DNA of 44,718 bases from an uncultured Flavobacteriales bacterium (GCA_937996585.1 CALKUW010000042.1:1-44718); one strand, 5' to 3'. Numbered from the stretch's first letter, positions 14,865 through 38,023 are shown. Made by a program: numbers and translations. The notes: a model not told the origin generated them from the letters alone.

Positions 14865-16846
14865 CACCAGTCCTTCTCGATTTTCGACTTCTTGCCCTTG
14901 TTGCGCTTGGCGTTTTCCTGAGCCTGCAATTTGGCACGAAGGGCGGCTTCGTTGCGCTCAAGCAAGTCAAGGATGCGCTCGGCATCTGCGGGGTGTATGC
15001 GTCCTTCCTGCTGTTCACCTTGATCAGGGCTGTCCTGTTGACCCTGGCCTTGATCTTGTTGTTGGTCCTGCTGCTGGTCGTTCTGCTGCTGGTCGCCTTC
15101 CCCTTGCTGGTCGTTCTGCTGCTGCTGGTCCTGTTGCTGGTCCTGTTGTTCGTCCTCTTGCTGGTCGTTCTGCTGTTGCTGGTCCTTCTGCTCGTCCTGT
15201 TGCTCGTCTCCCTGCTGTTGCTGTTCCTTCTGCTCGTCCTGTTGGTCGTCTCCCTGCTTTTGCTGTTCCTGCTGTTGCTGTTCCTGCCGCATCGACAACG
15301 CCAAACTGAGGTTGTGGCGGGTGTCAGCATCCATCGGGTCTAGCCGCAGCGCTTCCTTGTATGCACCTATGGCACCTTCCACGTCCTGACCGCCGAGCAG
15401 TACGTCGCCCACATTGCTCCACGCATCCGATTTCAATCGCGGGTCTTCGGCCTGGGATGCGGCGCGCTGAAAAGCCCTCATGGCGGCTTCGCCCTCACCT
15501 TTGCCGGCCAGCGCCAATCCTCTGTTCAGGGACAATTGACCGGGATCCGCACCCGACCATCCTTCAGCCGATTGGAACAGGCTGTCCGCCTTGGCGAAGT
15601 CGCGGTCCACCATGGCCTCGGTGCCGGCCACGGCCTGCGCCTTCGTGCCGCCAACCTTGTACGATTGGGCACGGGCGGTTCCGTTGCAAAGGATGAGAAC
15701 CAGCATGATGCCCAAGGCTGCGGTTGAACGCCGTTGGGCAAGTGGCCACAACGATTCCGCCAGAAGCAATGCCCATGCCACCAGGAAGAACCAGGGGAAG
15801 TGATGGACATAATCGGTGTAGGCCACCTTGTTGGTTTCACCCGTTTCGAGGTCGGCAATGCTGTCCAGGAAAGGGTCGAGGTCCACGAAGCCCTGATTGG
15901 CCCGCGCATAGGTGCCGCCCCCGGCTTCGACCATGGAAACGAGCATCCGCTCATCGAGCGTCGAGACCACTGGCTGGCCGCTGGCGTCCTCCTTATAGCC
16001 GGTTTGCCGCCCGTAACGGTCAAAAACCGGAATGGGGCCGCCTCCTTCGCTGGCCATACCAATGGCATGGACCTGGATGCCGCCTGCAGCCGCCTCATCG
16101 GCCCGGGCGAGGGCATCGTCCTCGTGGTTCTCCCCATCCGTCAGGACGAGGATGATCCTGCTCGCTTGACTTTCATCATCAAATGAGGATGTGCAGAGCT
16201 CGATGGCCGATCCCACGGCCGTTCCCTGCACCGGGATGGCTTCTGGACCGATGGCGTCGAGGAAGAGCTTGACTGCGGCCAGGTCGAGGGTGAGGGGCGC
16301 CTGAACGTAGGCGTCTCCCGCAAAGACCACCAGACCGGCGCGGTCTCCATCGAGGCGGCCAACCATCCGTTCAATGGTTCGCTTGGCCAGGTCCAGTCGG
16401 GCCATTCCGACGTCTTCGGCCATCATGGAGCGGCTGACATCCAAGGCCACCATGATGTCGACGCCTTTGGCTTCGACTTCCTTCAGGCGTGTACCGAGCT
16501 TGGGGGCGAGCATGCCGAGGGCGAGAATGGCCACCCCGGTTCGCCAGAGAAGGAATTTCCAGACCGATCGGCGCGGGCGGGCCTGGGGCCATAAGGTCTC
16601 GATCAGTGCAACATCCAATGCCTTGGACATGCGCCGCTGCTTCCAGAGGTAATGACGCGCGAAGAGCAGCAGACCCATGGGGGCCACCAACAGGGCTGGC
16701 CAGGCACCGGGCATGTGCAATTCGAATTGCGGTGCGGCCGAGCGCACCAGGAAATACAGTGCGACGATGAAGGCCCAGAAGACCAATTCGAACAGCACGA
16801 GCCCCGTGACGTGGCTGAACACCTTGTATTTGCGGGGTTCATTCAT
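14864..16846 (-). CDS. batB: BatB-like VWA-domain membrane protein fused to a BatC-like TPR protein with a Q/D/E-rich tail
   Basis: The preferred start is ATG 16846 (MNEPRKYKVF), which forms an ATGA overlap with the batA stop. It has N-terminal TM helices and a VWA domain with MIDAS motif DVSRSM. Two TM segments and a TPR region (DAWSNVGDVLLGGQDVEGAIGAYKEALRLDP) follow. A ~96-aa Q/D/E-rich stretch and a basic tail ending KSKIEKDW complete the protein. Confidence 0.82.
   Translation of the reverse strand: MNEPRKYKVFSHVTGLVLFELVFWAFIVALYFLVRSAAPQFELHMPGAWPALLVAPMGLLLFARHYLWKQRRMSKALDVALIETLWPQARPRRSVWKFLLWRTGVAILALGMLAPKLGTRLKEVEAKGVDIMVALDVSRSMMAEDVGMARLDLAKRTIERMVGRLDGDRAGLVVFAGDAYVQAPLTLDLAAVKLFLDAIGPEAIPVQGTAVGSAIELCTSSFDDESQASRIILVLTDGENHEDDALARADEAAAGGIQVHAIGMASEGGGPIPVFDRYGRQTGYKEDASGQPVVSTLDERMLVSMVEAGGGTYARANQGFVDLDPFLDSIADLETGETNKVAYTDYVHHFPWFFLVAWALLLAESLWPLAQRRSTAALGIMLVLILCNGTARAQSYKVGGTKAQAVAGTEAMVDRDFAKADSLFQSAEGWSGADPGQLSLNRGLALAGKGEGEAAMRAFQRAASQAEDPRLKSDAWSNVGDVLLGGQDVEGAIGAYKEALRLDPMDADTRHNLSLALSMRQEQQQQEQQKQGDDQQDEQKEQQQQGDEQQDEQKDQQQQNDQQEDEQQDQQQDQQQQNDQQGEGDQQQNDQQQDQQQDQGQGQQDSPDQGEQQEGRIHPADAERILDLLERNEAALRAKLQAQENAKRNKGKKSKIEKDW
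15002..15289 (-). repeat. Low-complexity imperfect tandem repeat encoding a Q/D/E-rich linker
   Basis: The protein stretch is RQEQQQQEQQKQGDDQQDEQKEQQQQGDEQQDEQKDQQQQNDQQEDEQQDQQQDQQQQNDQQGEGDQQQNDQQQDQQQDQGQGQQ. At DNA level it consists of reiterated ctgctggtc/ctgttgctg units. Confidence 0.9.
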
Positions 16847-28750: not shown

Positions 28751-31198
28751 ATGTACGTCGATGTCATCCTGCCTTTGGCCCTGCCCGGGCTGCTGACCTA
28801 CGGTGTGCCGGAGGAGGATTCCGCATCCGTCAAGCCCGGCTGCCGGGTGGTCGTTCCCCTGCGCGGCAAGCGGCTGCACACGGCGATCGTGCGCAGGGTG
28901 CACGCCGATGCTCCAGGCCACCGGACGGACGATTACCTGACCCTGCTCGATGAAGCCCCTTTGATTTCGGAGCAAACACTCAGGTTCTGGGACTGGATGG
29001 CCGGTCACTATTGCTGCGGTCCAGGAGAAGTTGCCCTCGCCGCATTGCCATCGGGCATGCGGTTGGCATCCGAGACCAAGCTGGAGTTGGCACCGGATGC
29101 GGATGACCTCGACGAGACCACCCTGGATGATCGGGATTTTCAGGTGGTGGATGCCCTGCGCCTGCGTGGAGCGCTGACCTTCAAGGAGGTCGGGCAGCTC
29201 CTCGGGGTGGCCAATCCTGCCGCTGTCTTGCACCGATTGGTCGAGGCCGGTTGGGTATTGTCGACGGAGGAATTGAAATCGGCACCGCGGCGGAAGGCGG
29301 TCTCCATGGTGCGGTTGTCCGAGCGGGCGGTCAAGGATGAGCGCTGGCTGTCCGATGCCCTGGACGAATTGGATGCCCGCGCACCGTCCCAGTCGCGCGC
29401 CATGATGGCCCTGCTCGATCAGCCTTCTCCTCAAAGGGGCGTTCCCATGGCGGAATTGACGCGCAGGGAGGGCATTACCACTGCCCTGTTTCGCCGATTG
29501 ATGGAGAAGGGATTGGTCTTCACCTTCAAGCAGGCCCCTTGGGAAGTCCCCAGCGAGGAGGAGGTGGAGCCCCTGGCGGCGCTGAGCCCTGCCCAGCAGC
29601 AGGCCCTGCGTTCCACGCGGGAAGGGCTGGGTGAAGCGGGCCTGGTATTGCTCGAAGGGGTCACCGGTTCCGGCAAGACGGAGGTCTACACCCACCTCAT
29701 CCACGAGGTTCTGGACGTTGGACGGGACGCCCTTTTCCTCGTTCCGGAAATTGCCCTGACGACCCAGCTCATCGTACGCCTTCGCCGGTTTTTCGGTGAC
29801 CGGCTCGAAGTCTACCACAGCCGGTTCAGTCCCCGGGAGCGCACCTCAACTTATCGGAGGGTGGCGGCCCGAGAGGGTAGGGGGCGTCTGATGGTCGGAG
29901 CGCGCAGTGCCATTTTCCTGCCCTTCACCAACCTCGGTTTGATCGTGGTGGATGAGGAGCACGATGCCAGCTACAAACAGCAGGATCCTGCACCGCGCTA
30001 CCAGGCCAGGGATGCGGCGGCCATGCTGGGCCACCTGCACGGAGCCCGTGTGGTGCTGGGGTCGGCCACCCCGTCATTGGAGGCGCGGTGGGCCGTGCAA
30101 TCTGGACGTGCCGAACATGTTCGCCTGAGCGAGCGCTTCGGGGGTACGTCCCTGCCCGAGGTAGGGTTGATCGACTTGCGCAAGGCCCACAAGCAGCGGG
30201 CCATGGAGGGCCATTTCAGCAAGGCACTACTCGATGCACTGCGGGACACACTGGCTTCGGGCAAGCAGGCCATCCTGTTCCAGAATCGCCGGGGCTTTTC
30301 TCCTGTCTACCAGTGTCGGACCTGTGGATGGGTGCCCGATTGCGAACGTTGTGATGTCACCCTGACCTACCACAAGTTCCTGCGTGATCTGCACTGCCAT
30401 TATTGTGGATACCGTCAGGGCGAGCCCCAGCAGTGCCCACGCTGTGGGAGCGAGGAGGTAGAGGCCAAGGGGCTGGGTACGGAGCGGATCGAGGAGGAGG
30501 TAGCCGCTCTGTTTCCGGACATCGCCGTCCAGCGCATGGACCTCGATACGACCCGGAGTAGGACCGGGCACGAGAAGATCATCCGGGCGTTCGAGCGCGG
30601 GGAGATACAGGTCCTGGTTGGAACACAGATGGTGACCAAGGGGCTTGATTTCGAGCACGTGGGCCTGGTTGGGATTCTGCAGGCCGACCGCATGTTGCAC
30701 TATCCGGACTTCCGCGCGTTGGAACGCACATTCCAGTTGCTTACCCAGGTGGCCGGGCGCGCGGGCAGGAGGGGAGAACAGGGAAAGGTGCTCATCCAGA
30801 CTTTCGACCCGGAGCATTGGGTCTTCGGACACGTGGTCTCGCACGATGCCGAAGCCATGGCCAAAGCCGAAATGCAGGAGCGCCATTCCTTCGGCTATCC
30901 GCCCGTTCAGCGGCTCATCCGCCTGATACTGCGTCACCGGGATCCCCACCTTACCAGGGAGGGGGCTGCGGCACTGGCCGGACGGTTGCGCAGCCGGTTC
31001 GGTGGCAGGGTCATCGGTCCGGAGGAGCCGGGCATTGCCCGCATCAACGATCAGTATCAGCGGCACATCCTGCTCAAGTATGAGCGGAGCGTCGATGCGG
31101 GACAGGTCAAGGCAGCCATGCAGGAAGACATTGCGGCCATGCGGCAGGTGGATCGGTACCGGCCCATTCGGGTCATCGTAGATGTCGACCCATATTAA
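28751..31198 (+). CDS. priA: Primosomal protein N' (replication restart helicase PriA)
   Basis: The ORF opens at 28532. The conserved start MYVDVILPLALPGLLTYGVPEE is at ATG 28751. It has Walker A GVTGSGKTEVY and DEEH. The Cys-rich Zn motifs are CRTCGWVPDCERCDVTLTYHKFLRDLHCHYCGY and CPRCGS. Confidence 0.95.
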   Translation: MYVDVILPLALPGLLTYGVPEEDSASVKPGCRVVVPLRGKRLHTAIVRRVHADAPGHRTDDYLTLLDEAPLISEQTLRFWDWMAGHYCCGPGEVALAALPSGMRLASETKLELAPDADDLDETTLDDRDFQVVDALRLRGALTFKEVGQLLGVANPAAVLHRLVEAGWVLSTEELKSAPRRKAVSMVRLSERAVKDERWLSDALDELDARAPSQSRAMMALLDQPSPQRGVPMAELTRREGITTALFRRLMEKGLVFTFKQAPWEVPSEEEVEPLAALSPAQQQALRSTREGLGEAGLVLLEGVTGSGKTEVYTHLIHEVLDVGRDALFLVPEIALTTQLIVRLRRFFGDRLEVYHSRFSPRERTSTYRRVAAREGRGRLMVGARSAIFLPFTNLGLIVVDEEHDASYKQQDPAPRYQARDAAAMLGHLHGARVVLGSATPSLEARWAVQSGRAEHVRLSERFGGTSLPEVGLIDLRKAHKQRAMEGHFSKALLDALRDTLASGKQAILFQNRRGFSPVYQCRTCGWVPDCERCDVTLTYHKFLRDLHCHYCGYRQGEPQQCPRCGSEEVEAKGLGTERIEEEVAALFPDIAVQRMDLDTTRSRTGHEKIIRAFERGEIQVLVGTQMVTKGLDFEHVGLVGILQADRMLHYPDFRALERTFQLLTQVAGRAGRRGEQGKVLIQTFDPEHWVFGHVVSHDAEAMAKAEMQERHSFGYPPVQRLIRLILRHRDPHLTREGAAALAGRLRSRFGGRVIGPEEPGIARINDQYQRHILLKYERSVDAGQVKAAMQEDIAAMRQVDRYRPIRVIVDVDPY

Positions 31199-31226
31199 TC
31201 CCACTGATTTGGTATAATATAATTTT

Positions 31227-31328
31227 ATGCCTTATCTTCATGTCACCATGCATGACACGTGCTGCATCATCTGTTGTTGTTGTCCGACCTCCTCGGGCAA
31301 GTTGTCGTCATGTCCGGGAATGATCTGA
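31227..31328 (+). CDS. Candidate 33-codon Cys-rich small ORF (leader peptide, small peptide precursor, or non-coding)
   Basis: My own translation gives MPYLHVTMHDTCCIICCCCPTSSGKLSSCPGMI followed by a stop. It is too short for the ORF track. The AT-rich patch GGTATAATATAATTTT sits immediately upstream, and a strong terminator lies 35 nt downstream. There is no homology evidence. The (TGT)4 run could be a simple repeat. Confidence 0.3.
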   Translation: MPYLHVTMHDTCCIICCCCPTSSGKLSSCPGMI

Positions 31329-31362
31329 TACCACGCATTCCCTCCTTTTGACCTCCAACTCC

Positions 31363-31387
31363 GCCCGGCCCTGAAGCCGGGCTTTTT
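31363..31387 (+). terminator. Rho-independent terminator
   Basis: GCCCGGC-cctgaa-GCCGGGC is a perfect 7-bp G/C stem, followed directly by TTTTT. The orientation fits the plus strand only. Confidence 0.8.
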
Positions 31388-31530
31388 CGTGTCCAGAAAT
31401 GTCCTCCCCAGCCACCCCACATCCGCAGAGCGGAACCAACAAAAGTCATTCCATCCCCCAACGACCGTCATCGAAAGCCCAACCGACCCGACGGAAAATG
31501 CAACAACCAACTAACAAAAAAGCTGCCGCC

Positions 31531-32568
31531 ATGAGTACTTCCATCCTCCCCATCCTGCCTCCCCACGCGGGTGGCCAAGCTCCCCTCCGAAGTGGAAACG
31601 GGGATGCCCAACCGACCATTCACATCATTCACGAAAACGACGCCTGGGTTGTTCCGCTGCGTGCTGAACTCGACGCACGGGGACTGCCCTACAAGGAGTG
31701 GTTCATAGATGAACTCGCCATCGACCTCGAGGCCGCACCGCCCGAGGGCGTGTTCTACAACCGGATGAGTGCGAGCTCCCACACAAGGGACCACCGCCAC
31801 GCCTGGGAGGCGACCCGCGGATTGATGGCGTGGCTTGAAGCCCACGGACGGCGGGTCATCAACAACCGCCGCGCGACCGGACTCGAAGTGAGCAAGATCG
31901 AACAGACCATTGCCCTGAAGCAGTATGGACTGCTCGTGCCGCGCAGTATGGCTGCGACCGGTATCGATGCCCTGCGTGATGCCGCTGCGAAGTGGGACGG
32001 CCCCTTCATCCTCAAGCCCAACCGCGGTGGAAAGGGGACAGGGGTCCGGCTCATCAGGAACACCCACGAACTGGAGGCGGTCATTGCCGAATTCGGAGAC
32101 TACACCCTTGACGGAACGGTCATCCTCCAGGAGTACATCCGCCCGGCGGACGGGCGCGTATTGCGGCTCGAGTTCGTCGGGGGCGAACACGTTTACACCG
32201 TCAGCATCGACGCGGGCGGTGGATTCGAGCTCTGTCCGGCGGACGGCTGCCAGATCGGCAATGCCTACTGCCCGGCCGATGGGCGCGCACAGTTCGAGGT
32301 GCTGGAGGACCACAAGCCCGAGCAATTGAAGCAATGCCTCGCTTTCCTGAAGGCTTCCGGCATGGAGGTGGCGGCCATGGAGGCCGCCCCCGATGCAGAG
32401 GGCAATCTGAAGTTCTATGATGTCAACATCAACACGAACTACAACGCCGCCGCCGAGGCGCGTGCGGAGGTGAAGAGAACCGGCATGGGAGCCATTGCGG
32501 ACTTCCTCGGCCGTGAGTTGCAATCCGTTCAGGCCGCAGCGGCCCGGGCACAACGCATCGCATCATGA
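31531..32568 (+). CDS. ATP-grasp domain ligase (RimK/glutathione-synthetase-like)
   Basis: The ORF opens at 31399. Candidate starts are ATG 31531 (A-rich upstream context) and ATG 31498. The motifs are FILKPNRGGKGTGVRLI, VILQEYI, and the C-terminal FYDVNINTNYN. It also carries an unusual duplicated motif, CPADGCQIGNAYCPADG. Confidence 0.75.
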   Translation: MSTSILPILPPHAGGQAPLRSGNGDAQPTIHIIHENDAWVVPLRAELDARGLPYKEWFIDELAIDLEAAPPEGVFYNRMSASSHTRDHRHAWEATRGLMAWLEAHGRRVINNRRATGLEVSKIEQTIALKQYGLLVPRSMAATGIDALRDAAAKWDGPFILKPNRGGKGTGVRLIRNTHELEAVIAEFGDYTLDGTVILQEYIRPADGRVLRLEFVGGEHVYTVSIDAGGGFELCPADGCQIGNAYCPADGRAQFEVLEDHKPEQLKQCLAFLKASGMEVAAMEAAPDAEGNLKFYDVNINTNYNAAAEARAEVKRTGMGAIADFLGRELQSVQAAAARAQRIAS

Positions 32569-33707
32569 CGGGCGTGGTAGGCCAGGCCCACTGGCGGACG
32601 GTGCGCCAGACCCATGTTGCCGTTGTGGGCGGTGGCATCATGGGGGCCATGACGGCAGCCCACCTGATCCAACTCGGTGCCGAGGTCACGGTATACGATC
32701 CGAATCCCATGGGTACGGGGCCGGGAGCCTCGGTGGACACCGGGCGGAGTTTCCGCGTGCACTACGGGACCGACAAGGAGCTCGTGGCCCACGCCGTGCG
32801 ATGCTTCGGCCTCTGGAAGCACTGGGAACTCACCTTGGAACGCCCACTGCTCCAAGCCACCGGCAAGATGTTGCTCGAAGAGCAGGGCGACCGCCATGCC
32901 TTCGAAAGCTGGCAGACGTTGCGCCGCATGGGTTTGCCTTCGGACCGCCTCGCTGCAGGAGCCGTGGCAGCCGAGTGGCCTGGTTTCAAGGCGGGCGCGG
33001 CCACGGTTGATCGCCTCGGGGGCGTGCTCGAGCCGCACATCATCCTCGATGCACTGCACGTCTGGCTGAAGTCCAAAGGGGCGAATTTCAGGGGTGAAGC
33101 GATGGATGTGGCGACGAAGGCCGTTACGGATGCCGAAGGCGCTCGGTCCTACGATTCCGTCGTGTTGACGGCAGGTGCCTGGACGCGGCGTTTCGTGAAC
33201 GCCTCCATGGAGGTGACCCGGCAGGAACTGGTCTATTTCGACGCATCCGCCCTGGGTGCCCGACTGGAGAAGCTCCCCGTATTCAGCCACATGGAAAGCG
33301 GCTTCTATGCCATTCCAACGGCGCGGGATGGCCGCATCAAAGTAGCCAATCACCACCCCGGACCGGTGGGTCACCCTGATGGAGATGACCGCAAGGTTAC
33401 GCCCGCATTCGAGCGCGCTGCACGGAAGTTCCTGGCTGACCACCTTCCGGAACTCGCCGATGCCGAGGTGGTGCGGAGGTATGTCTGCTTCTACAGTGGC
33501 ACGGCGGACCGCGATTTCATCCTCGATCGGACGGACGAGGGCCTCATCGTTGGGGCGGGCTTCAGCGGCCACGGGTTCAAGTTCTCCCCACTTGTGGGCC
33601 GCGTCCTGGCCCAGTTGGCCTTGGGAATCCAGCCGGAAATCGACCTCGCGCGATTCGCGCTGGACCGTCCGGCCCTCCAGGGCAACCTGATGAAGGTGGC
33701 CGTCTGA
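32565..33707 (+). CDS. FAD-dependent amine oxidase of the monomeric sarcosine oxidase / N-methyltryptophan oxidase (SolA) family
   Basis: It has an ATGA overlap with the ATP-grasp gene. The Rossmann motif is VAVVGGGIMGAMTAAHL. YVCFYSGTADRDFILD aligns with the covalent-flavinylation Cys region of MSOX/MTOX, and GAGFSGHGFKFSPLVG is the family C-terminal motif. Confidence 0.82.
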   Translation: MTGVVGQAHWRTVRQTHVAVVGGGIMGAMTAAHLIQLGAEVTVYDPNPMGTGPGASVDTGRSFRVHYGTDKELVAHAVRCFGLWKHWELTLERPLLQATGKMLLEEQGDRHAFESWQTLRRMGLPSDRLAAGAVAAEWPGFKAGAATVDRLGGVLEPHIILDALHVWLKSKGANFRGEAMDVATKAVTDAEGARSYDSVVLTAGAWTRRFVNASMEVTRQELVYFDASALGARLEKLPVFSHMESGFYAIPTARDGRIKVANHHPGPVGHPDGDDRKVTPAFERAARKFLADHLPELADAEVVRRYVCFYSGTADRDFILDRTDEGLIVGAGFSGHGFKFSPLVGRVLAQLALGIQPEIDLARFALDRPALQGNLMKVAV

Positions 33708-33712
33708 TCCGT

Positions 33713-33985
33713 TCAGGTGTCCTCCTTGGTGCGCCTCGCTGCCTGCACCCAGACCCGCGCAATCACGGCCATGAGCAAGGTGAAGGCCAAGGTGCAGGCA
33801 GCGGCGTAGCCCCACGTGCCCTCGGGCTCGGGTACGTCCAGGCTGTCTGCACGCAGTTGGGCGAGCCGCATGCGGGCATTGCGCACGATGAACCAGCTTC
33901 CCCACGCGACCATGGGCGCCAACACAAGCCAGGCCTTGAACCACGGTTCATAAGCGGTGCGGTCGATGTCGGGATTGGCCTTCAT
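33713..33985 (-). CDS. Small membrane protein (two predicted TM helices)
   Basis: The start, ATG 33985, forms an ATGA overlap with the yggS stop. The protein begins MKANPDIDRTAYEPWFKAWLVLAPMVAWGSWFIV and contains a second hydrophobic segment, YAAACTLAFTLLMAVIARVWV. Confidence 0.55.
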   Translation of the reverse strand: MKANPDIDRTAYEPWFKAWLVLAPMVAWGSWFIVRNARMRLAQLRADSLDVPEPEGTWGYAAACTLAFTLLMAVIARVWVQAARRTKEDT

Positions 33986-34668
33986 CGCGAACCGAAAATC
34001 GCGCTGCCGATCCGTACCATGGTGCTGCCCTCTTCCACGGCAATGCCCCAATCTCCGCTCATTCCCATGGACAGCGTATCCCATCCCCGGTCGGAGCCGT
34101 GTTGTTCGAACAGCGATCGCAATCCCGCAAATTCCCGGGCGACCTGACGTTCATCCGACGTGAAGGTGGCCATGCCCATGAGGCCCTTGACCTCCACGTG
34201 GGGCCATTCGCCTTCATCCAATGCGCTCAGTAGCGCTTCAAGTTCAGAAGGGGACAGACCGAATTTGGAGGATTCCTGGGCAATGTGCATTTGCAGCAGT
34301 ACCGGTACCTGGCGCCCGCATTGGGCGGCGCGCTTGTCGATTTCCGCGAGGAGCCCCTGCTGATCGACGGCGTGGATCAGCCCCACGAAGGGCGCGATGT
34401 ACCTGACCTTGTTCTTCTGCAGCGTGCCGATCTGGTGCCAGACCAACCCCTCGAACTCCGAGGAGCGTCCACCCTCAGGGGCGGTCAGGACTTCGTGCTT
34501 GCCCACCAGTTCCTGGACGCGGTTTTCACCGAAGCTGCGCGCTCCGGCGGCATACGCAGCCTCCACGGCATCTACCGGTTTGGTCTTGCTCACGGCAATG
34601 ACCTCCACCGAGGACGGGACCGCTCCGCGAACCTGCTGCCATTGCCGTACAATCTCTGTCGCCTCCAT
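33982..34668 (-). CDS. yggS: YggS-family pyridoxal-phosphate homeostasis protein
   Basis: The preferred start is ATG 34668 (MEATEIVRQW). The motif VEVIAVSKTKPVDAVEAAYAAGARSFGENRVQEL contains the PLP lysine. LSMGMSGDW and VRIGSAIFG are also present. Confidence 0.9.
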   Translation of the reverse strand: MEATEIVRQWQQVRGAVPSSVEVIAVSKTKPVDAVEAAYAAGARSFGENRVQELVGKHEVLTAPEGGRSSEFEGLVWHQIGTLQKNKVRYIAPFVGLIHAVDQQGLLAEIDKRAAQCGRQVPVLLQMHIAQESSKFGLSPSELEALLSALDEGEWPHVEVKGLMGMATFTSDERQVAREFAGLRSLFEQHGSDRGWDTLSMGMSGDWGIAVEEGSTMVRIGSAIFGSR

Positions 34669-34678
34669 GGCGCAAAGG

Positions 34679-35890
34679 TCAGGATGCCGGTCCGAAATCG
34701 AAGAGGGTAAGTCCACTGCGCAACTTGGGTGCGATCCAGGTGCTCTTGGGCGGAAGGTGTCGTCCATCGTCCGCAACGGCCTTGAGCCCTTCAAAGGTCA
34801 TGGGGGGCATGATGAAGGACAGCTGGTCAGCACCTGCCGTGGCCTTGTCAAGATCGGTGATTTCCAGGTCACCCGCGATGTAGTCGAGCCGCCGATCGGT
34901 GCGGGGTTCCTGAACGCCGAAAATGGGCCTGAGCACGGCCTCTTGAAGCCACTCGGCCGCGGTCAGCCCCGTCGCTTCCATGGCCTCCCGGATATCCATC
35001 ACGCCTTCTTCCAGACCGCGAAGGGCAATCTGTCCGGCAGCGGGTGTCAAGATGCCGTCTGCGGTTTCCCATCTGACACCATCCAAGGCGCGCATCCTGG
35101 ACAGTCGTTCAGCCAGGTCGGGTAGGGCCGACAACGCCTTCAGCACACGGTGGTAGCCCCGGAAAATGAGCTGGTCGCCCGGCACGGCGATTGCCATGAA
35201 GGCATGTGAGGCGGTGTGTTCGGGATGGGCTTGTGCCATGCGGATGCTGCTGGCCACCCGGTGGTGTCCATCAGCGATGTACAATGCGTCCATCCCGCCC
35301 AGGACTTCCGCCAAGGCCTCCCGGTTTGTCCCGCGCGCGCGCCACAAGGTGTGGCGCACCCCATCGGCGGTGGTGAAATCGAAATCGAAGGGGCCGTTCA
35401 CTACGGCTGCCACTGCGGCGTCCATCGCGGCATCGGGTACATGGGCCAACAGCGTCGGCTCGGCATTGAGCCCCACATCGCCGAGGTAGGAGGCGAACAG
35501 GGCCTCACGGTCGGAGAGGGTGGATTCATGCACCTTGATCCGGCCTGCCATCGCAGCGGCGGTAGGAACCAGCCCTATGATTCCCGTGCAGGTGCCGAGC
35601 GGCCCCGTCTGTCTGAGCACGTAATATGTCGGCTCGGTATCTGCGAGAAGCCATGCCTTGGCCAAGAAGATCTCGTAGGCCGCCCGGATCGACCGCATGC
35701 CATCGGTGCCACGCGCATCACCCTCCGGGTGGATGACGTGCAGATAGCTGAAGGGGTTCCTGGACAGCTTGTCCTGTAGCTCGTAGTCGCTGTAGGTCAG
35801 GTAGCTCCGTGTGGCGACGAGATGCGCCTTGTCCGGCGGGGGCAACACACCCGCGAAGGGCTGGAGCAAAGGGGCGGGCTTCGTTGTCAT
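34679..35890 (-). CDS. DUF1015 domain protein
   Basis: 403 aa. The N-terminus LLQPFAGVLPPPDKAHLVATRSYLTYS and the motifs NPFSYLHVIHPE and LYIADGHHR match my memory of the DUF1015 family. Confidence 0.75.
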   Translation of the reverse strand: MTTKPAPLLQPFAGVLPPPDKAHLVATRSYLTYSDYELQDKLSRNPFSYLHVIHPEGDARGTDGMRSIRAAYEIFLAKAWLLADTEPTYYVLRQTGPLGTCTGIIGLVPTAAAMAGRIKVHESTLSDREALFASYLGDVGLNAEPTLLAHVPDAAMDAAVAAVVNGPFDFDFTTADGVRHTLWRARGTNREALAEVLGGMDALYIADGHHRVASSIRMAQAHPEHTASHAFMAIAVPGDQLIFRGYHRVLKALSALPDLAERLSRMRALDGVRWETADGILTPAAGQIALRGLEEGVMDIREAMEATGLTAAEWLQEAVLRPIFGVQEPRTDRRLDYIAGDLEITDLDKATAGADQLSFIMPPMTFEGLKAVADDGRHLPPKSTWIAPKLRSGLTLFDFGPAS

Positions 35891-35929
35891 TGAATCGAGC
35901 GCCCCGAAAGGTATCCGAACCGGCGGGAT

Positions 35930-36895
35930 TTACCGCATCTCGAGGATGCGCTCGACGAGTTCGTCGCCGATGCGGTCCTGGGCTTCGAGGGTGGCTGCCC
36001 CGATATGGGGGGTGAGGGCGAGCCCTTCCACCTTCAACAGGGTGGGGTCCGGCTTGGGCTCGCCGACGAAGACGTCCAGAGCGGCCCCGCGCAGGTGACC
36101 CGATTCAACAGCCGCGCGCACGGCTACCTCGTCCACCGTGCCCCCGCGGGCCGTATTGACGATCATGGCGCCCTGCTTCATGGCGGCCACACCTGCGGCA
36201 TCCAATACGGGGGAACCGTCGGCCTGGGCGGGAACATGGAAGGTCACGGCGTCCGCCTGTGCCAGCATCTCACTCATGGAGACCAATGGAATCTCCACGT
36301 CAATGTCATGCGTTCGGCCGCCACCGATGGGCACCTGCACCGAAACCGTCCGCGATGTGCCTTCGCGGTCCACACCGATGACGTTCATGCCACAGCCGAG
36401 GGCATACTGCGCCACAGCGGAGCCGATGCGTCCGAAACCGACGACGCCGAGGGTCTTGCCGCGCAGCTCAATCCCTTTGGCATAGGCCTTCTTCAGCACC
36501 TTGAAGTCCTCTGCGCCCCGCGCAGGCATCTCCTGGTAGCTGCGGTGCAGAGAACGCGCCATGGCAAACAGGTGGGCCATGACGAGCTCTGCCACGCTCT
36601 GGGAACTCGCGGCGGGAGTGTTGAAGACCACCTTGCCATTGTCGCGCGCGTATTGGACATCGATATTGTCCATGCCGACACCACCGCGGCCGATGAAACG
36701 CAGTCCGGGGCAGGCGTCGATGAGGTCCTGACGCACCTTGGTGGCGCTGCGCACGAGCAGGCCTTCATAGCCTTCGGCGTTGAGCACTTCGATGAGGCGA
36801 TCCTGCTCCACGTGGTCCGTGGTGACGATGACGCCTTGGGATTCGAGGGTGGACTTGGCCTTGTCTGAGATGCCGTCGTTGGCGAGCACTTTCAT
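35930..36895 (-). CDS. serA: D-3-phosphoglycerate dehydrogenase (short form, no ACT domain visible)
   Basis: 321 aa. The NAD-binding motif is GKTLGVVGFGRIGSAVAQ. NTARGGTVDE and TPHIGAAT are also present. The gene lies next to serC. Confidence 0.85.
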   Translation of the reverse strand: MKVLANDGISDKAKSTLESQGVIVTTDHVEQDRLIEVLNAEGYEGLLVRSATKVRQDLIDACPGLRFIGRGGVGMDNIDVQYARDNGKVVFNTPAASSQSVAELVMAHLFAMARSLHRSYQEMPARGAEDFKVLKKAYAKGIELRGKTLGVVGFGRIGSAVAQYALGCGMNVIGVDREGTSRTVSVQVPIGGGRTHDIDVEIPLVSMSEMLAQADAVTFHVPAQADGSPVLDAAGVAAMKQGAMIVNTARGGTVDEVAVRAAVESGHLRGAALDVFVGEPKPDPTLLKVEGLALTPHIGAATLEAQDRIGDELVERILEMR

Positions 36896-36934
36896 GGTAG
36901 CGGGGTCAATGGTGTTTTCAGTATGTCGGGAAGT

Positions 36935-38023
36935 TCAGCCGCGGGTGCGCTCGAATTCGCGCATCACTTCGACGAGGACCTCCACACTGGCCAGGGGCAG
37001 TGCATTGTACATGGAGGCGCGGAAACCTCCGACGGAACGGTGGCCCTTGATGCCACTGATGCCGGCTTCATCACATGCGGCAAGGAATGCTGAAGTGTGG
37101 GCATCATCCGCAGCGGTGAAGGTGGCGTTCATGACACTCCGCGATCCCGGGTCGGCAAATCCATTGAACAGGGGGTTCCGGTCAATTTCACCGTAGATGC
37201 AGGCGGCCTTGGCGGCGTTGCGGTCGCGGGCGCCTTCCACACCGCCATTGTCCTTGAGCCAACGCAGTGTGAGCATGCTCGTGTAGACGGCGAATACCGG
37301 AGGGGTGTTGAACATGCTGTCCTTGTCGGCGTGGACAGCGAGGTCCAGGTAGCTGGGAATGTCCCGTCCGGTCTTGCCGATCCGCTCGGTGTCGTAGATG
37401 TACAGCACGGTGCCTGCCGGCCCCATGTTCTTCTGTGCGCCGGCATAGATGCAGGCATACTTCTCGATGTCCACCGGACGGGAGAAAATGTCCGAGCTCA
37501 TATCGGCCACCATCGGTGTATCGATGACGGGGTCGGCGCCGTATTGGGTACCGTAGATGGTATTGTTCGTGGTGATGTGCACGAAGTCGGCTGCAGAAGA
37601 GGAGGGCAATGCCGGAATCCGGTCGAAGCCCGTCTCCTCACTGGAGGACAGGGCTTGGGCACCGCCGATCCGCTTGGCTTCCTTCAGGGCCTTCTTGGCC
37701 CAGGTGCCGGTTACGGCATAGTCCATGCTTCCTCCTTCGGGAATGAAGTTCATGGCTGCCGTCAGGAACCCGAGGCTGGCCCCGCCCTGCAGGAAGAGCA
37801 CCTCGTAGCGGCCCGGCAGGTTGAGTTCGCTGCGCACCAGGCTGCGCGCCTCTTCCATGATGTCGACGAACGCCTTGCTCCGGTGGGAAATCTCAATCAG
37901 GCTCAGTCCCATTCCATCCAGGTCGTGCACCGCCTGGGAAGCTTGCGAGAGAACGGACGGCGGCAGGATGCAGGGGCCTGCCGAGAAGTTGTGGATGGCT
38001 TGGGTCATCGTGGACATCATCAT
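36935..38023 (-). CDS. serC: 3-phosphoserine aminotransferase
   Basis: 362 aa. The motifs are HNFSAGPCILPPSVL, LSLIEISHRSKAF, LFLQGGASLGF and AGAQKNMGPAGT (PLP lysine region). Confidence 0.95.
   Translation of the reverse strand: MMMSTMTQAIHNFSAGPCILPPSVLSQASQAVHDLDGMGLSLIEISHRSKAFVDIMEEARSLVRSELNLPGRYEVLFLQGGASLGFLTAAMNFIPEGGSMDYAVTGTWAKKALKEAKRIGGAQALSSSEETGFDRIPALPSSSAADFVHITTNNTIYGTQYGADPVIDTPMVADMSSDIFSRPVDIEKYACIYAGAQKNMGPAGTVLYIYDTERIGKTGRDIPSYLDLAVHADKDSMFNTPPVFAVYTSMLTLRWLKDNGGVEGARDRNAAKAACIYGEIDRNPLFNGFADPGSRSVMNATFTAADDAHTSAFLAACDEAGISGIKGHRSVGGFRASMYNALPLASVEVLVEVMREFERTRG

Follow-up and report, generated by a model that had tools for sequence, protein, structure and literature searches.

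We analysed a 44,718-nucleotide stretch of DNA (the window, meaning the whole of that stretch) from an uncultured Flavobacteriales bacterium (GCA_937996585.1 CALKUW010000042.1:1-44718), in which two overlapping plus-strand genes, one for an ATP-grasp ligase and one for a flavoprotein amine oxidase, follow a short open reading frame (sORF) rich in cysteine codons and a transcription terminator. A preliminary description of this DNA had presented the two genes as a translationally coupled module that could not be assigned to a described pathway. The features of the region, including the regulatory elements predicted upstream of the genes, are as follows.

31233-31240, plus strand: promoter-like box TATCTTCA, 8 nt 5' of the leader ATG, aligning with TATCTT/TATATTTG in 23 leaders of the genus
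31248-31328, plus strand: leader sORF MHDTCCIICCCCPTSSGKLSSCPGMI followed by a stop, 26 codons, start set by the genus alignment
31281-31299, plus strand: hairpin 1:2, formed by region 1 (31281-31287, overlapping the last Cys codon) and region 2 (31293-31299)
31294-31367, plus strand: predicted antiterminator, in which region 2 (31294-31310, within the sORF) pairs with 31349-31367, including the 5' arm of the terminator
31363-31387, plus strand: intrinsic terminator GCCCGGC-loop-GCCGGGC plus TTTTT, with a 7-bp all-GC stem at 31363-31382
31531-32568, plus strand: open reading frame of the ATP-grasp ligase, 345 aa, of a widespread and uncharacterised RimK/LysX-like family
32233-32283, plus strand: coding region of the conserved Cys loop of the ligase, C235-P-x-D-x-C240 ... 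C247-P, from 88 sequences
32565-32568, plus strand: ATGA stop/start overlap of the ligase and oxidase genes
32565-33707, plus strand: open reading frame of the flavoprotein amine oxidase, 380 aa, resembling monomeric sarcosine oxidase (MSOX) and N-methyltryptophan oxidase (MTOX) and confined to the genus of the window

The Cys-rich sORF and the terminator that had been reported upstream of the pair are both present. Six Cys codons fall within eight codons of the sORF (31260-31265 and 31272-31283), and the position of the box, which we take to resemble the Bacteroidetes -7 consensus TAnnTTTG, suggests that the leader mRNA would be nearly leaderless. A search for this box followed by an ATG and four Cys codons matched 18 of the 28 genus genomes, against none for the reversed control pattern; the matches belong to the three poly-Cys leader classes described here, to which are added leaders with a Leu run that fit the pattern out of frame. 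All 24 genus loci whose upstream DNA is long enough contain a Cys-rich frame; 23 of these leaders have at least three consecutive Cys codons, in runs of up to six, and the other (L099) has four Cys within five codons. The N-terminal part and the length of the leader peptide vary among the genus loci. The terminator stem, approximately 100 nt after the Cys run, is invariant in all 23 aligned leaders, and a regular-expression search recovered the terminator in 24 of the 25 genus loci, with locus L098 having a variant T-run.

The leader is predicted to form alternative structures. Hairpin 1:2 is a consensus stem in the RNAalifold fold of 23 leaders and is also found in the minimum-free-energy fold of the window's leader. 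When folds were computed for a stalled ribosome, with the Cys run masked as ribosome-covered and the terminator's 3' arm still to be transcribed, the four core antiterminator pairs formed in the minimum-energy fold of 20 of the 23 leaders. The variable parts of the antiterminator covary, with cognate pairings averaging -7.35 kcal/mol and non-cognate pairings -5.03 kcal/mol, and none of 10000 permutations was as low, kinship among the leaders being uncontrolled in this comparison. We found that the bases following the Cys run, CGGGCAnGnTnCCGTCATG, are conserved and yet, through a 1-nt indel, occur in two reading frames (..CCPAPPGRLPSC.. versus ..CCPAPRARYRHVG with a stop, that is, PAPPGRLPSC versus PAPRARYRHVG and a stop), suggesting that the constraint acts on the RNA and not on the peptide, presumably because these bases form the antiterminator. 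The sORF had been put forward as a candidate substrate peptide; since only its Cys run is kept at the peptide level and the rest is antiterminator RNA read in two frames, this role was not borne out. In our judgement the sORF is very likely a poly-Cys leader-peptide transcription attenuator controlling the operon. Regulation by cysteine, the main clue to this unit, had not been noted in the preliminary description. The leader had no Rfam match at E up to 1, and the window contains no T-box.

Variation was seen in the spacing and number of these elements. Locus L101 (genome G013) has two copies of the terminator CCGGGCTTTTT upstream of the ligase, at 247 and 424 of its upstream stretch, with the Cys run preceding the first copy, and its leader may be duplicated. 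The distance from terminator to ligase is longer by roughly 100-170 nt in the subclade L081-L084 alone. In the window, an in-frame ATG at 31399 would give the ligase a 44-residue low-complexity extension (31399-31530), and homologues begin at MSTSIL.. or later.

As described previously, the ATGA overlap is present at 32565-32568, both open reading frames are as reported, and all of the peptide motifs quoted from them occur in the two translations. Both genes were found in 25 of the 27 other genomes of the genus and are adjacent and co-oriented in all 25, one pair being split over two contigs. The two genomes without the pair, with completeness of 74% and 78%, also lack the adjoining priA, a normally essential gene, and the pair is therefore most likely unassembled in them. 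The overlap is kept in 24 of the 25 genus loci although the oxidases diverge to 50% identity and the ligases to 60%, which is more conservation than expected by chance, and the oxidase appears to be translationally coupled to the ligase throughout this genus. The oxidase was absent from all 33 other genomes of the same family and order (E up to 1e-20), and the ligase was represented among these 33 by one fragment in one genome. In a sister genus, the genes immediately after priA are one for a small membrane protein, then yggS and a DUF1015 gene, and this uninterrupted order indicates that the leader, ligase and oxidase constitute an insertion of approximately 2.5 kb beside priA. In the window, the 3' side of the pair is occupied by a conserved minus-strand block at 33713-38023, in which the genes for the small membrane protein, YggS and DUF1015, syntenic with priA in the insertion-free sister genus, are joined by serA and serC.

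Relatives of the ligase are far more widely distributed than the pair. At least 582 species genomes encode one (582 of 599 candidate stretches were confirmed), and the best 80 ligase loci, from other taxa, were examined. An MSOX-like gene lies within 5 kb of the ligase in only three of the 80 loci, all from close Flavobacteriales relatives, and none was found within this distance in the other 77. Every oxidase orthologue seen, however, is linked to the ligase. The proposed two-enzyme module therefore stands as a co-oriented, overlap-coupled and co-inherited unit of this genus but not as a general association, and the unlinked orthologues that had been named as evidence against it are the rule for the ligase and were not found for the oxidase. 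As the pairing vanishes outside the genus while the ligase family is widespread, we read the ligase as the conserved core and the oxidase as a lineage-specific addition in this genus.

The genome of the window contains two further poly-Cys leaders with the same box and terminator.

G000 contig C322, L113:390-3110, minus strand: poly-Cys leader MKRFNCCCCCCTLLGALGFRRGTR (MKRFNCCCCCC..) with stop and terminator, preceding a cysM-mec-cysO-type operon
G000 contig C113:24-856 (L114), repeated at the end of contig C315: poly-Cys leader MLNMAFCCCCGCCAPPGV with stop and terminator, preceding a gene for a 1-Cys peroxiredoxin

The genes following the first leader encode PALP (CysM/K-type), JAB (Mec), ThiS (CysO) and ThiF-type E1 proteins, and this Flavobacteriales operon has the look of a CysO-type cysteine pathway governed by a Cys attenuator. 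Leaders like the second were also observed in genomes G015 and G014. Together, the cysM-mec-cysO operon, the 1-Cys peroxiredoxin and the ligase-oxidase pair define a small cysteine regulon of this uncultured marine genus, and the regulatory part of our interpretation is well supported by the anatomy of the leader, its conservation, the covariation and the calibration provided by cysM-mec-cysO. The ligase was also considered as an activator of CysO in place of an E1 enzyme; this was rejected, as the cysM-mec-cysO operon has its own ThiF-type E1 and a Mec homologue occurs in only eight of the 27 genus genomes, versus 25 for the ligase.

The same box also precedes sORFs of the type MPRLIILLLL../MVRLMVLLLL.. 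(G009:C1:2764826-2764867, G010:C108:3723-3764, G016:C151:1936-1977, G003:C105:4302-4343 and G006:C176:2942-2983), which are probably leucine leader peptides and were caught by the Cys pattern because CTGTTGTTGTTG fits it out of frame. Elsewhere in the window, the plus strand at 15054-15389 holds an open frame of Cys/Trp/Ser-rich repeats (SCCWSCCWSFCCWSPSPCWSFCCCWS...), which may be an off-frame reading of a repetitive gene.

Cysteine-responsive elements were also found before ligase relatives in other taxa. A poly-Cys sORF lies within 700 nt upstream of the ligase in 11 of the 80 loci by an automatic rule and, by eye, in L002. Nine of these, outside the genus in Saprospiraceae, Chitinophagaceae, Sphingobacteriales and Balneola, stand before ligase genes without an oxidase and encode differing peptides, each with a strong terminator; in eight of these nine, most bases of the terminator 5' arm are predicted to pair upstream under a stalled ribosome, forming a putative antiterminator. 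In a quick tree of the ligases, in which support was taken from the Shimodaira-Hasegawa-like approximate likelihood ratio test (SH-aLRT), all 12 leader-bearing ligase genes fall in one 18-row Bacteroidota/Balneolota clade (SH-aLRT 98), and two of its remaining six rows have no upstream DNA. A poly-Cys match in L027 (Fictibacillus) was discarded as a chance hit, since it lies inside an upstream 403-aa open reading frame and has no attenuator context. Locus L018, from a Gammaproteobacteria metagenome-assembled genome (MAG), groups with a Rhodohalobacter ligase inside the Bacteroidota/Balneolota clade (SH-aLRT 99), suggesting either gene transfer or mis-binning.

A different type of sensor was identified in Clostridium. 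In Clostridium bovifaecis and a Clostridium MAG, an Rfam RF00230 T-box (114.6 and 102.4 bits; gathering threshold 93) precedes a gene for an SDF-family symporter, and the ligase gene begins 50 nt after the symporter gene in both loci. These T-boxes have the specifier loop GAAGUGCC and a UGGA bulge, exactly as does the T-box preceding cysE in the same genome, and the cysE assignment rests on TIGR01172 (256 bits; cut-off 210.65). The codon position within the T-box was checked on 11 leaders of that genome, namely those of TyrS, PheS, AsnS, ThrS, IleS, GlyS, MetG, ValS, ArgS, SerS and AlaS, and by this reading the T-box of the Clostridium ligase relatives is Cys-specific. The ligase family thus stands under tRNA-Cys sensors of at least two unrelated kinds, and it has links or joins with SDF-type symporters.

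The ligase itself is a weak member of the RimK-like ATP-grasp group to which it had been assigned. It scored 24.3 bits with the Pfam RimK model PF08443, barely above the cut-off of 21, and remained below the cut-offs of TIGR00768 for the RimK family alpha-L-glutamate ligases (64.5 bits; cut-off 143.4) and TIGR02144 for LysX (43 bits; cut-off 275.6). In a profile search of the PDB, RimK was the best match (E 2.7e-7), over the central ATP-binding part only. The AlphaFold2 model of the ligase had a mean predicted local distance difference test score (pLDDT) of 86.6 and a predicted TM score of 0.87, the parts of low confidence being the N-terminal 22 residues and the Cys loop at 235-249 (pLDDT < 50), and it predicts a three-domain ATP-grasp fold. 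A Foldseek search of the PDB with this model returned ATP-grasp ligases as all of the top matches (E 1e-16 to 1e-13), the best being ArgX/LysX, the peptide macrocyclase PsnB and RimK (E approximately 1e-16, 17-21% identity). The ligase thus shares with RimK, LysX and ArgX (PDB 5zct, 4iwx, 3vpb, 3vpd and 5k2m) the three-domain fold, at query-normalised TM scores of 0.58-0.66, and the KPNRGGKGTGV loop, whereas its low identity to them, its own signatures and the restriction of the profile match to the ATP-binding part set it apart.

The family is large, with at least 7728 matches among 8000 candidates scored, and its members are approximately 50% identical across Bacteroidota, Bacillota, Pseudomonadota, Nitrospirota, Acidobacteriota and Cyanobacteriota. 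Its signatures are FYNRMSASSHTRDHRY in the N-domain, KPNRGGKG, a three-Cys loop and YDVNINTNYN; neither the protein atlas nor the homologue records hold a specific name for it, only generic ones such as RimK-like or hypothetical. Residues K162, N164, R165, G167, G169, V172, E284, D297 and N299 are invariant in 88 family sequences, and E284, D297, N299 and the residues of the glycine-rich loop presumably occupy the ATP/Mg sites of other ATP-grasp enzymes. The ligases of the genus lie on a long tree branch (1.04 changes per column) with the conserved core unaltered, S192T being the only clade-specific change at conserved positions. The insertion described earlier as a duplicated four-Cys motif, CPADGCQIGNAYCPADG, holds in fact three cysteines, C235, C240 and C247. 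Of its residues, C235, P236 and C240 are invariant in the 88 sequences, and D238, C247 and P248 are nearly so, C247 being kept in at least 90%; the family-wide core is therefore C-P-x-D-x-C ... C-P, and the second 'ADG' is restricted to the clade of the window. The metal site suggested earlier for this insertion was not supported, its three cysteines lying on a loop that the structure model does not resolve.

The surroundings of the ligase gene are not conserved. Clustering of the open reading frames of the 80 loci revealed no neighbour family in more than seven loci, and no LysW-like or S6-like partner gene is evident beside the ligase. Pfam annotation of 74 upstream and 73 downstream neighbours identified peptidases of families M15, M20 (twice) and M29, two OppC, four TctC and two SDF genes as well as redox genes, with no conserved neighbour among them. 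Among five longer homologues, one has an SDF symporter joined to the ligase, and in two chromerid proteins the ligase is joined to a mitochondrial carrier. The latter, from Chromera velia (P0246) and Vitrella brassicaformis (P0247), combine a bacterial-type ATP-grasp part with a C-terminal mitochondrial-carrier domain, and the Chromera protein has a long insertion in place of the Cys loop.

The oxidase matched the DAO family PF01266 with 158.3 bits over residues 17-351, and its best solved relative is the monomeric sarcosine oxidase 1el5 (E 3e-33), with an end-to-end alignment. A phmmer alignment placed its residues C308, R61, R64, K259, H263, Y310 and K339 on C315, R49, R52, K265, H269, Y317 and K348 of the 1el5 chain, in agreement with the MSOX/SolA-type signature and the cysteine for covalent FAD attachment noted earlier. 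Of these, R64, K259, C308, Y310 and K339 are invariant in 47 oxidase sequences and H263 is kept in at least 90%, so that the oxidase probably carries covalently bound FAD; retention of the Arg/Lys carboxylate clamp suggests that it should act on a secondary-amine amino acid, with the carboxylate beside the secondary amine. In sum, the oxidase resembles MSOX (1el5) and the MTOX SolA (2uzz) in its full-length alignment, flavinylation Cys, Lys/His pair and Arg/Lys clamp, and differs from them in having Ser at the position of MSOX His45, in occurring in one genus only and in having its gene always ATGA-joined to that of the ligase. Identity among the oxidases falls from at least 47% to at most 39% beyond the genus-level group, the nearest outside relatives being 30-39% identical. 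In line with the preliminary description, both proteins score below the cut-offs of all characterised NCBIfam equivalogs.

Taken together, we consider it probable, though well short of assured, that 31233-33707 is one cysteine-starvation operon, turned on when charged tRNA-Cys is short. When it is, the ribosome would stall on the Cys codons of the nearly leaderless 26-codon leader and cover region 1; region 2 would then be left to pair with the terminator's 5' arm, letting RNA polymerase continue into both genes. When cysteine is plentiful, the ribosome would run through the leader, hairpin 1:2 and the terminator would form, and transcription would end at approximately 31387. The module may raise the usable supply of cysteine from an imported cysteine-related amino acid: the ligase might spend ATP to conjugate or trap cyst(e)ine or a closely similar compound, and the oxidase might free the primary amine from an N-alkylated or ring-closed form, such as N-methyl-cysteine or thiazolidine-4-carboxylate, releasing H2O2. 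A role of the unit in cysteine or thiol metabolism is the reading we lean towards; the particular chemistry given above for the two enzymes is unlikely to be right.

Several observations weigh against this interpretation. Equilibrium folds computed without a ribosome also favour the antiterminator in most leaders, so that the decision to terminate must rest on the kinetics of folding. Our data establish how the genes are arranged and co-inherited, how the attenuator is built and conserved, and that relatives are under Cys-specific regulation, whereas we infer that cells respond to cysteine in vivo, which substrates are used and which of the two reactions comes first. Marine metatranscriptome contigs bridge the terminator (X2 31258-31737 and X1 31340-31681) and the ATGA junction (X2 32098-33050, X1 32286-32656 and X6 32464-32845); these fit both read-through and co-transcription without proving either, and RNA contigs may derive in part from DNA and cannot establish that there is one transcript. 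Four runs yielded no RNA contigs on 30900-31220 or 33789-34100, which is not evidence for the ends of a transcript. Three leaderless loci of the Bacteroidota/Balneolota clade, L013, L015 and L017, do have upstream DNA, and the poly-Cys leaders of the clade may share a single origin, which would leave approximately two independent regulatory lines and not many. The 62 of the 80 loci outside this clade have heterogeneous neighbours and show no recognisable Cys signal save the two Clostridium T-boxes, and the protein joining SDF symporter and ligase keeps the ligase's own Met and may represent adjacent in-frame genes read through. The roles given to the oxidase residues are those that we take to hold in MSOX, namely covalent FAD attachment, oxygen activation and carboxylate clamping, with R52 and K348 as the clamp and the K265/H269 pair on the flavin, transferred to the aligned positions. 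Finally, a ligase that consumes cysteine is a counter-intuitive thing to induce during a shortage of cysteine.

In an alternative that we consider unlikely, low charged tRNA-Cys would report an oxidised cysteine pool, the ligase would build a Cys-containing low-molecular-weight thiol or dipeptide, and the oxidase, together with the co-regulated 1-Cys peroxiredoxin, would serve redox defence and not cysteine supply. The poly-Cys leader before the peroxiredoxin gene, in this genome and two relatives, fits such a thiol or oxidative-stress function, as do the catalase, pyridine-nucleotide disulfide reductase, thioredoxin and CMD-/GFA-type genes adjoining some ligase homologues, and the invariant CPxDxC..CP loop could be redox-active. 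However, redox neighbours occur in few of the 80 loci and are not conserved, an H2O2-producing oxidase suits defence poorly, and T-boxes and poly-Cys leaders sense tRNA charging, the genes they control in the same genomes, cysE and cysM-mec-cysO, being supply genes.

It is also conceivable, but improbable, that the ligase modifies a protein, attaching an amino acid at the C-terminal end of some conserved protein under cysteine starvation, with the oxidase as unrelated cargo. Its nearest folds and profiles, ArgX/LysX, PsnB and RimK, belong to enzymes acting on the carboxylates of peptides or proteins, RimK on ribosomal protein S6 and LysX/ArgX on the carrier LysW, and the identity of approximately 50% across phyla would suit a conserved macromolecular substrate. 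Against this, the 80 loci provide no conserved partner gene by the ligase, the links and joins with solute carriers point to a small-molecule substrate, and the conserved ATGA coupling speaks against the oxidase being unrelated cargo.

Catabolism of N-methyl amino acids of the sarcosine or N-methyl-tryptophan type, with an accessory ligase and with the Cys leader as a local regulatory accident, appears quite improbable. The best families of the oxidase are indeed N-methyl-L-tryptophan oxidase (NF008425) and monomeric sarcosine oxidase (TIGR01377), but its scores of 179 and 149.1 bits are under the curated cut-offs of 257 and 479.65, respectively; moreover, the leader is conserved throughout the genus and before oxidase-less ligase homologues, and the inserted unit contains no other gene of a sarcosine or creatine pathway. 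A system for a peptide made on the ribosome and modified after translation (RiPP), with the Cys-rich sORF as the precursor modified by the ATP-grasp enzyme and the oxidase, is scarcely credible: the ligase does match the maturase model TIGR04187 (27.1 bits) and PsnB (7drm, E 8e-4) weakly, and terminators between precursor gene and enzymes occur in RiPP clusters, but the TIGR04187 cut-off of 350 bits is not reached, the part of the peptide beyond the Cys run shows no conservation at the protein level while the N-terminal part and the length vary, the leader is without the Ser/Thr/Lys plus Asp/Glu core that graspetides presumably need, the same leader type precedes cysM-mec-cysO and the peroxiredoxin, most ligase homologues have no sORF, and the conservation of the bases after the Cys run in two frames nearly excludes such a system.

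Returning to cysteine supply, a broader but tentative possibility is that the ligase family represents a missing, widespread enzyme of cyst(e)ine assimilation, forming an acyl-phosphate beside the three-Cys loop, standing behind SDF-type importers and controlled through tRNA-Cys, with the oxidase widening the range of substrates. Under this proposal, the invariant three-Cys loop might bind a metal or an Fe-S cluster or act as a thiol/persulfide relay, and the oxidase of the genus would extend the substrates to N-alkylated or thiazolidine cysteine.

Poly-Cys leader switches are already known, and the two enzymes are new members of known superfamilies, below the cut-off of every characterised equivalog. 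In the part of the report available to us, mycobacterial polycysteine leader sORFs are described as attenuators acting at translation initiation, by freeing a ribosome-binding site and with no terminator (Canestrari et al., bioRxiv 10.1101/834739). The leader in the window resembles these, as far as that part of the report describes them, in being a Cys-codon-run sORF at or near the 5' end of the mRNA at which stalling is read as a shortage of charged tRNA-Cys, and differs in being a classical 1:2/2:3/3:4 transcription attenuator with four to seven Cys codons in Bacteroidota, placed before an ATP-grasp ligase that is not known to act in cysteine metabolism. The available excerpts of other papers mention predicted Cys-codon leader peptides in Actinobacteria (PMC1262725) and the uORFC-8-2 motif upstream of cysS in Rhodobacterales, with two Cys codons and a U-tailed terminator stem (PMC8632094); the latter, so far as described there, is like the window's leader in having a U-tailed terminator stem after the sORF and unlike it in controlling cysS instead of an ATP-grasp ligase. 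Leader-peptide attenuation in a flavobacterium is treated in general terms only in the accessible text of another report (PMC9723704). We found no description in the literature of a poly-Cys attenuator in Bacteroidota, although the supplements of PMC9723704 may list such leaders, and our literature search yielded neither a link between this ATP-grasp family and cysteine nor a gene cluster of an ATP-grasp enzyme and a sarcosine oxidase. The Clostridium ligase and SDF symporter behind a cysE-type specifier loop are reminiscent of the clostridial Cys T-box regulon (cysE and cystine symporters), whereas the T-box is a tRNA-binding, riboswitch-like leader and the window uses a leader peptide.

These findings extend poly-Cys leader-peptide attenuation to Bacteroidota in the form of a classical terminator/antiterminator switch, and the regulation gives a functional handle on a large family annotated only as hypothetical or RimK-like. 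Its two kinds of sensor for charged tRNA-Cys and its links to importers make it testable whether an unrecognised ATP-dependent step exists in the uptake or salvage of cysteine. Since the operon is present in marine metatranscriptomes, it may be relevant to the acquisition of reduced sulfur by these bacteria in seawater.

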